A stretch of DNA of 64,000 nt from Pseudomonadota bacterium (GTDB lineage: Bacteria; Pseudomonadota; Gammaproteobacteria; Burkholderiales; Thiobacillaceae). Each line of letters begins with the position of its first letter. Position 1 is the first letter of the stretch. The stretch spans positions 6,004-70,003 of the forward strand of contig JAJZSR010000001.1 in the NCBI GenBank assembly GCA_021849595.1, given 5' to 3'. Positions 31,857-61,950 of the stretch are shown here, in pieces. Position numbers and translations under genes: made by a program. The notes under the pieces are model-generated. The model worked only from the letters and a program-made list of their open reading frames with translations, searched no databases and was not told where the DNA came from.

Positions 31857-32642
31857 ATGATCCGCTCCCTCTACATCGCACAGACCGGCTTGGAAGCGCA
31901 GCAGACGCAAATGGACGTCATCGCCAACAACCTGGCCAACGTCAACACCACGGGCTTCAAGAAGTCCCGCGCCGTCTTCCAGGATCTGCTCTACCAGAAC
32001 CTGCGCCAGCCGGGCGCGCAGTCGTCGCAGAACACCCAATATCCCTCCGGATTGCAGTTGGGCACCGGGGTGCGCCCGGTGGCAACCGAGCGCATCATGA
32101 CCCAGGGCAACCTGACCCAGACCGGCAACTCGCTGGACGTCGCCATCAACGGCCAGGGCTTCTTCCAGATACTGAAACCCGACGGTACCATCGCCTACAC
32201 GCGCGACGGCACTTTCCAGCTCAACAACCAGGGCCAGTTGGTAACCTCCAGCGGCTATGTGCTGCAGCCCCCCGTCACCATCCCGCCGGGCGCGCAGACC
32301 ATCACCATAGGCAACGACGGCACGGTATCCGTCACTCTGGCCGGGCAATCCGCCCCCCAGCAGGTAGGCAGCATCCAGCTCGCCAACTTCCTCAACCCCA
32401 CGGGTTTGCAAAGCATAGGCGACAACCTCTATCTGCAAACCGCGTCTTCCGGCGCCCCCACCACCGGGCAGCCCACCTTCAACGGCCTGGGCTCGCTGCA
32501 GCAGGGCTATCTGGAAACCTCCAACGTCAACGTCGTCGCGGAACTGGTGAACATGATCTCCACCCAGCGCGCCTACGAAATCAACAGCAAGGCCGTGCAG
32601 ACCTCCGACCAGATGCTGCAATACGTCAACAACAATCTGTGA
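31857..32642 (+). CDS. flgG: Flagellar distal rod protein FlgG
   Basis: 261 aa ([47 protein letters not shown] ... [26 protein letters not shown]). Confidence 0.96.
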
Positions 32643-32673
32643 TCGTCGCGGCGGGCTGCATGAGCATCAAGGC

Positions 32674-32880
32674 AATTATTGATCCGGCATTATTGAACCT
32701 GAAAATATACGGCGGCACGAAAGCCTACGTGTCTCGATTTTTGGCAAGGGAATGCCGGATCAATAACATTCAACCTCGGCTGTTTATTGAGGCGGCCCAG
32801 CGGCCGTATTCAACGCTTCTGCCGCACTGGGGTCGTTTCACGTTTCAAGTTTATAGGTGCCGCCTCAATAATCGGATCCC
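32674..32880 (+). repeat. AT-rich double-hairpin intergenic repeat, copy A (between flgG and flgH)
   Basis: Perfect inverted repeats TTATTGATCCGGCATT (32676-32691) / AATGCCGGATCAATAA (32751-32766) and TTATTGAGGCGGC (32784-32796) / GCCGCCTCAATAA (32859-32871). It shares conserved blocks with copy B at 61794-61950. Confidence 0.8.
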
Positions 32881-32899
32881 TCGGCGCGGCCTGCGCCTA

Positions 32900-33574
32900 A
32901 TGCTCGCCCTGTTCCCGGTGTTGCTGCTGGCCGCTTGCGCCGGCAGCGCGCCGCCCAAGGGCCCGCTCGCCACCCTGCCCATCCCGGCCGAACCGGCCAA
33001 CGTGGACGCCCACGCCGCCAACGGCGCCATCTGGCAACCGGACACCAACGTCGCTTTATTCGAGGACAGCCGCGCCCACCGCGTAGGCGATCTCATCACC
33101 ATCCTGATTCAGGAAAACGCCAACGCGACGAAATCCACCAACACCACCATCAACAAGTCCGACTCCATCAACGCCGGCATCACCAGCCTGTTCGGCATCG
33201 CGCCGACTTTCGGCCTGCATAACGGCACACCCTTCAGCCCCAGCCTGGACGCCAGCTCGGCGCAGAAATTCGGCGGCAACGGCGCCACCGCGCAGAGCAA
33301 CACCTTCACCACCACCTTGCAGGCCACGGTCGTGCGCGTGATGAGCAACGGCAACCTGGAAATCTCCGGGCAGAAGGAAGTGATGCTCAACGGCGGACAC
33401 GAATACATCCGTGTCGCCGGCGTGGTGCGCGCCGCCGACATCAGCCCGCAAAACACCGTGTCGTCCACCCAGATCGCCGATGCGCGCGTCGAGTACAGCG
33501 GCAATGGCAGCGTTTACGACGCCGCGCGGGTGCCCTGGCTGGCGCGCTTCTTCCTTTCCCTGTGGCCATTCTGA
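32900..33574 (+). CDS. flgH: Flagellar L-ring lipoprotein FlgH
   Basis: Lipobox LLLAAC after the start MLALFPV, then conserved HRVGDLITILIQENANATKS and a C-terminus ending GNGSVYDAARVPWLARFF. Confidence 0.93.
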   Translation: MLALFPVLLLAACAGSAPPKGPLATLPIPAEPANVDAHAANGAIWQPDTNVALFEDSRAHRVGDLITILIQENANATKSTNTTINKSDSINAGITSLFGIAPTFGLHNGTPFSPSLDASSAQKFGGNGATAQSNTFTTTLQATVVRVMSNGNLEISGQKEVMLNGGHEYIRVAGVVRAADISPQNTVSSTQIADARVEYSGNGSVYDAARVPWLARFFLSLWPF

Positions 33575-33587
33575 CTCGCGGCTCGCC

Positions 33588-34733
33588 ATGATTACCCCCC
33601 TGCGTCATCTCCCCCGCCCGGCCCGCTTGCGTTACGCTGCCCTCGCGCTGCTGCTCGCGCTTTGCGCTCTGGCGCTGCCGGCGCGCGCCGCCGCGGTGCG
33701 CGATCTCACCACGGTCCAGGGTGTGCGCAGCAACCAGTTGGTGGGCTACGGCCTGGTAGTAGGCCTGAACGGTACCGGCGACCAAGCCACCCAGGTGCCC
33801 TTCACCACCCAGTCGCTCATCAACATGTTCCAGCGCCTGGGCATCAATCTGCCCCCCAGCGTGGCCACCAACCTGCAGCCCAAGGATGTCGCCGCCGTCA
33901 TGGTGACCGCCCAACTGCCGGCATTCGCCCAACCCGGCCAGACCATCAACGTCACCGTTTCCGCCGCCGGCAATGCTTCCAGCCTAGCCGGCGGCACCCT
34001 GCTGATGACCCCGCTCAAGGGCGCCGACGGCCAGACCTACGCAGTGGCGCAGGGCAACATCGTGGTAAGCGGCTACGGCGCCAGCGCGGGTGCCAGCAGC
34101 ACGCAGACCAATTTCCTCACCGCCGGCACCATCGCCAACGGCGCCAGCGTCGAGCGTGCGGTGGCGAGCAACTTCGACAACGGCGGCCCGCTGCTGCTGG
34201 CCCTCAACACGCCCAGCTTCAGCACCGCCAGCCGCGTGGCGGAGCAAATCAACCGCCATTTCGGCGCCGGCACGGCGGTGGCGCTCAACGCCGGGGCCGT
34301 ACAGGTACAGGCCCCGGCCAATCCCGGTGCCCGTACTACTTTCCTGGGCGACGTGGAAAGCCTGGAGGTGACGCCGCAAACGCCCGTCGCCAAGGTGGTG
34401 ATCGACGCCCGCAGCGGCACCGTGGTGCTGGGCCAGAACGTCACTCTGGGGCCCTGCGCGGTGGCGCACGGTAATCTCTCGGTGACCATCAGCACCCAGT
34501 ATCTGGTAAGCCAGCCCAACCCTCTGGGCGCCGGACAGACCGCCGTGGTGCCGCAAACCGAAGTGCAGGCGGCCCAGCAAAAGGCCAACCTGCTGATGTT
34601 CCAGCCCGGGGTCACGCTCGAAGCCGTGGTGCGCGCGCTCAACGCTGTCGGCGCCACCCCCAACGATCTCATCGCCATCCTGCAGGCCATGAAGGCCGCC
34701 GGCGCCCTGCACGCGCAGATGGAAGTGATATGA
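33588..34733 (+). CDS. flgI: Flagellar P-ring protein FlgI
   Basis: Signal peptide, then VRDLTTVQGVRSNQLVGYGLVVGLNGTGDQ, ending in LIAILQAMKAAGALHAQMEVI. Confidence 0.96.
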   Translation: MITPLRHLPRPARLRYAALALLLALCALALPARAAAVRDLTTVQGVRSNQLVGYGLVVGLNGTGDQATQVPFTTQSLINMFQRLGINLPPSVATNLQPKDVAAVMVTAQLPAFAQPGQTINVTVSAAGNASSLAGGTLLMTPLKGADGQTYAVAQGNIVVSGYGASAGASSTQTNFLTAGTIANGASVERAVASNFDNGGPLLLALNTPSFSTASRVAEQINRHFGAGTAVALNAGAVQVQAPANPGARTTFLGDVESLEVTPQTPVAKVVIDARSGTVVLGQNVTLGPCAVAHGNLSVTISTQYLVSQPNPLGAGQTAVVPQTEVQAAQQKANLLMFQPGVTLEAVVRALNAVGATPNDLIAILQAMKAAGALHAQMEVI

Positions 34734-61793: not shown

Positions 61794-61950
61794 ATTTATT
61801 GATCCGAAACTTATGAATCCGAAAAAACAGCCGTCGCCAATAAAACCGGATTGGCGGGAAAGCCGCGCCCAGTTTCGGATCAATAACAATTGAACCTCGG
61901 CGGGTTATTGAAGGGAAATTCAAGTTCTTGAATTTCCCTTCAATAACTAC
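61794..61950 (+). repeat. AT-rich double-hairpin intergenic repeat, copy B (between the multicopper oxidase and cytochrome c genes)
   Basis: Perfect inverted repeats TTATTGATCCGAAAC (61796-61810) / GTTTCGGATCAATAA (61872-61886) and GTTATTGAAGGGAAATTCAAG (61904-61924) / CTTGAATTTCCCTTCAATAAC (61927-61947). The linker block CAATAACAATTGAACCTCGGCGGGTTATTGA is shared with copy A. Confidence 0.8.

Follow-up and report, generated by a model that had tools for sequence, protein, structure and literature searches.

What is the AT-rich double hairpin that separates flgG from flgH? In the window, that is, the whole 64-kb stretch of DNA analyzed here (located on contig C151 of the host genome), these two Pfam-confirmed genes are separated by a spacer of 257 bp, from the flgG stop codon at 32640-32642 to the flgH ATG at 32900. 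The spacer carries a double hairpin (copy A), and a similar one (copy B) is located between a multicopper oxidase gene and a c-type cytochrome gene, both identified by Pfam. The GC content is 49% in copy A and 43% in copy B, and 64% in the genome. The sequence-only reading of this DNA described a novel repeat with compensatory changes in its stems, representing either a DNA element of the REP or MITE kind, recognized through a conserved site at its stem base, or a structured RNA. As detailed below, the double hairpin is very probably a non-autonomous MITE derived from a clade of 1.1-kb IS elements of the IS630 family (Tc1/mariner-type, DDE).

Structure of the element

The perfect hairpins with TTATTGA and TCAATAA at their bases, as originally described, were confirmed in both copies. 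In copy A, these words are located at 32676, 32760, 32784, and 32865. Hairpin 1 has perfect arms of 16 bp at 32676-32691 and 32751-32766 with 59 nt in between, and hairpin 2 has perfect arms of 13 bp at 32784-32796 and 32859-32871 with 62 nt in between. In copy B, hairpin 1 has the same dimensions (61796-61811 and 61871-61886; 16 bp, perfect, 59 nt in between), and hairpin 2 consists of perfect 21-bp arms at 61904-61924 and 61927-61947 around a 2-nt loop. Each of the four stems opens with TTATTGA and closes with TCAATAA. The two copies also have a 17-nt linker in common; in copy A it joins both modules at 32767-32783 (CATTCAACCTCGGCTGT, forward strand), and it is kept among betaproteobacterial copies. 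In the 64-kb window, TTATTGA occurs 14 times with 1.5 occurrences expected, and CGGATCAATAAC, with at most one mismatch, occurs four times with 0.08 expected. The predicted RNA folds have energies of -74.2 kcal/mol for copy A (z -4.9) and -63.5 kcal/mol for copy B (z -7.7), and none of 200 dinucleotide shuffles was as stable in either case.

The outer end of the element is a 27-nt two-part terminal repeat, comprised of TA-TTGA-NN-CGGCA and the box ACTTGAA starting from position 21. In subfamily II (see below), CGAAAC replaces the CGGCA of subfamily I. In both, five variable bases follow, and then ACTTGAA. Of 48 distinct oriented variants, 44 have the box beginning at position 21. Module 2, on the opposite strand, is laid out in the same way, again with the box at position 21, as read from copies A and B. 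Hence, the whole element contains two complete outward 27-nt ends and two truncated inverted copies of 13-16 nt facing them. The truncated copy is found ∼60 nt inside each end, except in module 2 of subfamily II, where the two abut directly.

In copy A, the element proper spans 32679-32868 on the forward strand (190 bp). Its left outer repeat (32677-32703, forward strand) reads TA-TTGATCCGGCA... and contains the box variant ACCTGAA at 32697-32703, beginning at position 21. Its right outer repeat (32844-32870, reverse strand) comprises the TTCAAGT box at 32844-32850 followed by GCCGCCTCAA-TA. The inner arm of module 1 (32751-32766, forward strand) is a truncated inverted copy of the left end, fully complementary to 32676-32691, and the inner arm of module 2 (32784-32796, forward strand) is a truncated inverted copy of the right end, with all 13 bp complementary to 32859-32871. 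In copy B, the element proper is shorter (61799-61943, forward strand, 145 bp), with TA at 61797-61798 and 61944-61945. Its module 2 (61904-61947, forward strand) is formed by two complete two-part ends placed back to back, with the TTCAAGT box at 61919-61925.

Read backwards, the flgH frame remains open through all of copy A up to a GTG at 32639, yielding a 311-aa ORF (32639-33574), while the 224-aa protein starting from the ATG at 32900 matches the full FlgH Pfam model. Since the frame is open through copy A, gene callers may over-extend flgH.

Copies in the host genome

The host genome (G000) is a 2.63-Mb draft of 229 contigs with 64% GC and 91% completeness. Counting loci by word clustering and by an nhmmer search with a seed alignment, we found ∼27 loci of the element instead of the two known from the window, so that the proposed check of copy number had a positive outcome. 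All loci are intergenic and lie between long ORFs with high GC3, and the element length varies from 145 to 197 bp across the family. The copies form two subfamilies, and there are also solo modules as well as decayed copies. The arms of subfamily I are TTGATCCGGCA.. and TTGAGGCGGC.., and its module-1 copies are 81-97% identical to each other. Copy A belongs here and shares 89-93% identity with the full-length members on contigs C92 and C29. In subfamily II, to which copy B belongs, the arms are TTGATCCGAAAC and TTGA[TAG]GGGAAATTCAAG; copy B shares 93% identity with a copy on contig C12.

Both copies in the window have the orientation of the next gene, as had been observed. Among copies located between genes of the same direction, eight are co-oriented with the flanking pair and six are opposed; therefore, the co-orientation holds for copies A and B and is not a property of the family.

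Insertion sites

To characterize the insertion sites, we used two genomes of the host genus, G001 and G002. G001 has an empty site between flgG and flgH: its flanks on the flgG and flgH sides are 97% and 95% identical, respectively, and two bases replace the element, with ggcaat-CG-atcgg in G001 corresponding to the filled ggcaat-TA[TTGA..TCAA]TA-atcgg in the host. Copy A represents an insertion into the flagellar rod/ring operon that is specific to the host lineage. For other copies, the flanks were joined and searched in G001, and eight further sites yielded a contiguous match across the junction, that is, were empty. The orthologous spacer of copy B in G002 does not contain the element. Altogether, at least ten sites are empty in the congeners, and two sites are filled in both the host and G001. 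As filled and empty sites differ between congeners, the copies can be used as strain markers.

Six empty sites in G001 could be cleanly aligned. Five of them contain a single TA (corresponding to the copies on contigs C63, C79, C65, C125, and C228), and their filled counterparts in the host read TA[TTGA...TCAA]TA. The bases beside the target TA tend to be T and A. The sole exception is the flgG-flgH site with its CG in G001; in copy A, the left TA is at 32677-32678, where the empty site has CG, and the right TA, read from the sequence and the empty site in G001, is at 32869-32870. Target-site duplication of TA is a feature of the element family.

The flgG-flgH region itself (window positions 31900-33600) is 95-97% identical between the host and G001. 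Most other flanks compared between these two genomes are only 72-91% identical, with two at 94-96%. The flagellar cluster may have been recently exchanged between the two lineages, or it may be unusually conserved.

Parent IS elements

A 37-nt query representing the end of the element produced 21 matches on one Ralstonia syzygii megaplasmid when searched against plasmids. In the same set, blastn with the whole element yielded no match, and an end query of the Nevskia type yielded chance matches only. In one of these matches, locus L208 on a Ralstonia megaplasmid (NZ_CP115942.1), a gene comes after the end, and the unit is a complete IS of ∼1.1 kb, TA-TTGATTCGGTATGAATGAACTTGAA ... TTCAAGTTCATTGGTGCCGAATCAA-TA. 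Its single 344-aa ORF scores as an IS630 family transposase (NF033545, 238 bits at a cut-off of 100) and contains DDE_3 and two helix-turn-helix (HTH) domains. This transposase has ∼8000 homologs at E <= 1e-30, many of them on contigs of ∼1.1 kb, as expected, because a repeated IS assembles on its own. We inspected eight further homologous IS loci, from Xanthomonas oryzae (CP018089.1, L210), a Rubrivivax genome, Azohydromonas lata, and metagenome contigs, and all eight have TA-flanked ends with the same design as the element.

The IS630 clade found on megaplasmids of R. syzygii and R. pseudosolanacearum and elsewhere has the same TA-flanked 27-nt two-part ends as the element, with TTGA-NN-CGG.. 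followed by ACTTGAA at position 21. In copy A, the left end shares 25 of 27 positions with the right end of L212 and 24 of 27 with either end of L215, and the right end shares 24 of 27 with the right end of the IS630-family IS L214. The starts of L215 and copy A read TA-TTGATCCGGCATTAATGATCTTGAAAAT and TA-TTGATCCGGCATTATTGAACCTGAAAAT, respectively. Even the asymmetry of NN is common to the ISs and the MITE: L215 has TTGA-TC at the left end and TTGA-GC at the right end, and modules 1 and 2 differ likewise. On the other hand, the element lacks a transposase gene, is 145-190 bp long compared to ∼1114 bp, and has extra truncated inverted copies of its ends that are absent from the ISs. Among the nine IS loci inspected, none has the subfamily II arm (TTGATCCGAAAC). 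The fold-back inner arms have no counterpart in the parent ISs examined, and a simple internal deletion of the parent IS does not explain them.

Thus, the element has terminal repeats matching those of the IS630 family, duplicates TA, and is short, non-coding, and multi-copy with filled and empty sites; on every defining feature tested, it is a MITE derived from the IS630 family. Of the two alternatives offered by the sequence-only reading, the MITE-like one, with a recognition site conserved at the base of the stem, was right in kind, the ends being of the IS630 type. The claim of novelty is not supported: as the ends match IS630-family terminal inverted repeats, they match a known IS end, and the element is absent from the orthologous spacer of the congener.

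Search for a transposase

The host genome (91% complete, 229 contigs) and the complete single-contig genome G005, from the same family but another genus, contain no hit to PF13358. The IS630-like genes of G001, G002, and the Nevskia genome have ends unrelated to the element, and the Ralstonia transposase used as a query had no hit in five more element-bearing genomes. Apart from the complete G005, the genomes checked are mostly metagenome drafts, which often lose IS copies. In addition, tblastn searches with an IS630 transposase and the RAYT against all loci yielded nothing relevant. Since no matching transposase was found in the host and nine other element-bearing genomes, the copies in the host genome look orphaned. 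In the Nevskia genome, all 20 arms initially seen as single (20 of 20) have a degenerate partner nearby, and the 113 fetched loci contain no long-range arm pair and no solo two-part end.

We also considered a MITE of the IS5 type (IS427/IS1031) and rejected it. PF13586 has no hits in G000, G001, G002, or G005; the Nevskia genome contains a single one, whose ends are unrelated to the element, and the ends of the element match IS630.

Distribution

An exact-arm pattern scan across 185,579 species genomes matched at least 113 stretches. Among the matches listed, convincing members come from Nevskia, Thiobacillus, Hydrogenophilales, Sulfuricaulis, Hydrocarboniphaga, Solimonas, Methylococcus, Chromatiales, and Herminiimonas, as well as a few from Acidobacteriota and Bacteroidota genomes assembled from metagenomes. 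The linker and module 2 are also present in most members among these listed matches, and a few of the latter, e.g., in Chitinophaga and Alistipes, look like chance. In one Nevskia genome, there are ∼115 copies. An exact match was found in only three of 401 sampled genomes of the window's own order and in only two of 40 close relatives, and the viral contigs searched contain no match to the element. This patchy distribution fits horizontal spread followed by bursts of copying. The family is widespread and apparently undescribed, and literature searches for the arm sequence strings returned only unrelated primers.

In the complete genome G005, a subfamily-II copy (C1:1213568-1213717; L018/L003) lies ∼6 kb downstream of flgG. 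It is in or beside the flagellar cluster of that genome, at a site that differs from flgG-flgH.

Stem covariation and alternative explanations

The compensatory changes in the stems are real. To measure them, we used a script counting pairs inward from the ends in 79 distinct module-1 variants from many genomes, with kinship ignored. Stem positions 1-10 are fixed, in part through the design of the search. Positions 11-15 are paired in 94, 95, 84, 84, and 77% of these variants, respectively, compared to 75, 54, 46, 45, and 41% after shuffling of the partners, and from position 16 onward pairing is at the chance level. The inner-stem code of module 2 tracks that of module 1, GGCA occurring with GGCA, GAAAC with GGAAA, and GGCC with GGCC. 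An IS often has different bases at positions 11-15 of its two ends, whereas the arm pairs of the MITE are near-perfect. The covariation tracks the variable part of the putative transposase-binding end together with the fold-back inner arms. It is best read as element-level selection or as copying of the arms at the origin of each subfamily. Selection at the RNA level is not the best reading, as there is no strand bias and no Rfam match, and the loops are unconstrained beyond the DNA box.

Could the hairpins nevertheless be maintained by selection on RNA structure, as in a family of structured non-coding or cis-regulatory RNAs? The excess of pairing at positions 11-15 of the 79 variants (77-95% compared to 41-75% in shuffled pairs) and the strongly negative folding z-scores are in line with this. 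However, relative to their flanking genes, copies are found on both strands (8 to 6), the pairing ends exactly with position 15, and the only constrained part of the loops is the DNA box common to the IS ends. The Rfam searches gave no match either: Rfam 15 at the gathering score had none in the whole window, and with copy A at E-values up to 10 there were only chance-level miRNA hits (E-values 2-7). Insertion polymorphism with TA duplication, ends matching IS630-family terminal repeats at up to 25 of 27 positions, and the patchy distribution that looks like horizontal spread all speak against a structured RNA, making it highly improbable. The arrangement of two conserved arms around a variable spacer of ∼60 nt resembles a REPIN, i.e., a REP-derived element moved by a RAYT (Y1 HUH transposase), or a palindromic element derived from IS200/IS605 and recognized as a single-stranded DNA hairpin, and the host genome does contain one PF01797 (Y1_Tnp) gene, on contig C10. 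Yet the inverted repeats on either side of this sole Y1 transposase gene, aaaatggggtcaaac and gtctgaccccgtttt, are its own, unrelated to the element and without TTATTGA; the arms of the element have no GTAG-type head; and its ends match a DDE-type IS630 element instead. Moreover, the element is strand-symmetric, and it duplicates TA, while REPs make no such duplication. The suggested link to REP and RAYT is not supported, and mobilization by a Y1-type enzyme is extremely improbable.

A different question is whether a MITE by origin has been co-opted at flgG-flgH, as well as at other sites in operons, as an mRNA stabilizer, an RNase processing site, or an attenuator. Co-opted hairpins would set the ratio of flgG to flgH expression, as shown for REP and Correia elements. 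Transcripts of bacterial MITEs form long stem-loops with such effects on mRNA (PMC2229807). Both copies in the window lie inside apparent operons and are co-oriented with the genes, the predicted RNA hairpins are very stable, and 10 nt separate the end of copy B from the GGAG of the cytochrome c gene. Copy A also has a weak terminator-like hairpin with a T-run at 32714-32743 and one promoter-like site at 32741-32769. Against this, the family has no orientation bias, and the congener G001 lacks the insertion in flagellar genes that are 95-97% identical to those of the host; hence, the flagellar operon does not need the element. We consider co-option improbable, although an effect of copy A on flgH expression, e.g., via a hairpin-mediated change of mRNA stability or processing, is possible. 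With its ends of the IS630 type, the element is ordinary selfish DNA and not a new regulatory RNA.

Comparison with known repeats

Bacterial MITEs are shorter than 200 bp, have terminal inverted repeats and terminal TA, are AT-rich, duplicate the target, and form stable stem-loops, and the element shows all of these standard properties (PMC2229807). The element works like RUP from Streptococcus pneumoniae, a MITE of 107 bp for which movement by IS630-Spn1 has been proposed, and like the Correia elements. RUP is similar in being short, gene-less, intergenic, and multi-copy, and in having IS630-like ends and inserting into TA (PMC2229807). It differs in its unrelated host lineage and in being a single unit, not a double fold-back. 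To our knowledge, the RUP sequence is unrelated to that of the element. The Correia elements, or NEMIS, of Neisseria are also AT-rich, have TA termini with duplication, and form long stem-loops when transcribed; their length of 100-155 bp and terminal repeats of ∼24-26 bp place them beside the element by general properties only (PMC2229807). Unlike the element with its two independent hairpins and a parent IS clade that can be named, a Correia element is one long hairpin. We know of no cognate transposase of Correia elements. The CIR repeats of Caulobacter and Brucella resemble the element in that the 5' and 3' halves form separate long stem-loops and the termini are TA (Chen and Shapiro, 2003, as tabulated in PMC2229807). 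By contrast, they have no terminal inverted repeats, no demonstrated duplication, and no link to IS630, and they are tied to GANTC methylation sites.

Possible mechanism and implications

Given the two-part terminal repeat and the domains of the IS630 transposase, mobilization of the MITE may be pictured as follows. The two HTH domains of the transposase would bind the two-part terminal repeat, and the transposase, supplied in trans, would cut the element out and paste it into TA, preferably T-TA-A, duplicating the TA. Each half of the element, unlike the parent IS, folds into a hairpin through the truncated inverted copy of its own end. The seemingly compensatory changes correspond to the inner, variable bases of the putative transposase-binding end and to their mirror image in the fold-back copy, and the lineages with still-matching arms would be those that kept multiplying.

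The double fold-back design, that is, a complete IS630-type end and a truncated inverted copy at a near-fixed distance of ∼60 nt, is kept from Thiobacillus-like bacteria to Nevskia and Sulfuricaulis. It is conceivable, if rather unlikely, that the design is functional. In that case, four transposase-binding sites or hairpin/cruciform ends could make the MITE a better substrate than the parent IS, which would explain why the stems pair perfectly while the ends of the parent IS may differ, and would represent an undescribed strategy among bacterial MITEs derived from IS630. More generally, the fold-back inner arms pose a small question of how MITEs out-compete their parent elements.

The identification of the MITE exposes the supposed new regulatory RNA in a flagellar operon as a false lead, explains AT-rich islands in the intergenic spacers of these high-GC genomes of sulfur oxidizers, and ties a widespread MITE family to a specific and very abundant IS630 clade. 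In practical terms, the copies break assemblies and can alter the expression of neighboring genes.

Other repeats and derivatives

Several individual loci in the host genome deserve mention. In the subfamily-I copy at C168:8893-9319, the module-2 loop is interrupted by an unrelated insertion of ∼230 bp. With inverted ends ccagattgtccattaga ... tctaatggataatctgg and an apparent duplication of TTCAAC, this insertion seems to be a second MITE nested inside the first. At C144:2841-2890, we found a miniature relative of module 1, missed by nhmmer, with a loop of only ∼20 nt (TATTGATCCGGTGATTCGGTGTGCCTGTTTCGATAAGGCCGGATCAAC). The Y1_Tnp or RAYT-like gene (MARLPRYVIPGQPQHIIQRGNNRQPIF...) is at C10 ∼2003-2710 (L006 1459-2166) and is single in the genome. 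Finally, to the right of the copy at C29:27510-27704, there is a different repeat of ∼110 bp (CGCAGCGACACTCCGTCCCCCTCGCCCTGTGGGAGAGGGCCGGGGTGAGGG...), belonging to a separate high-GC interspersed family, which is found in more than 30 places in G001 with ∼81% identity.
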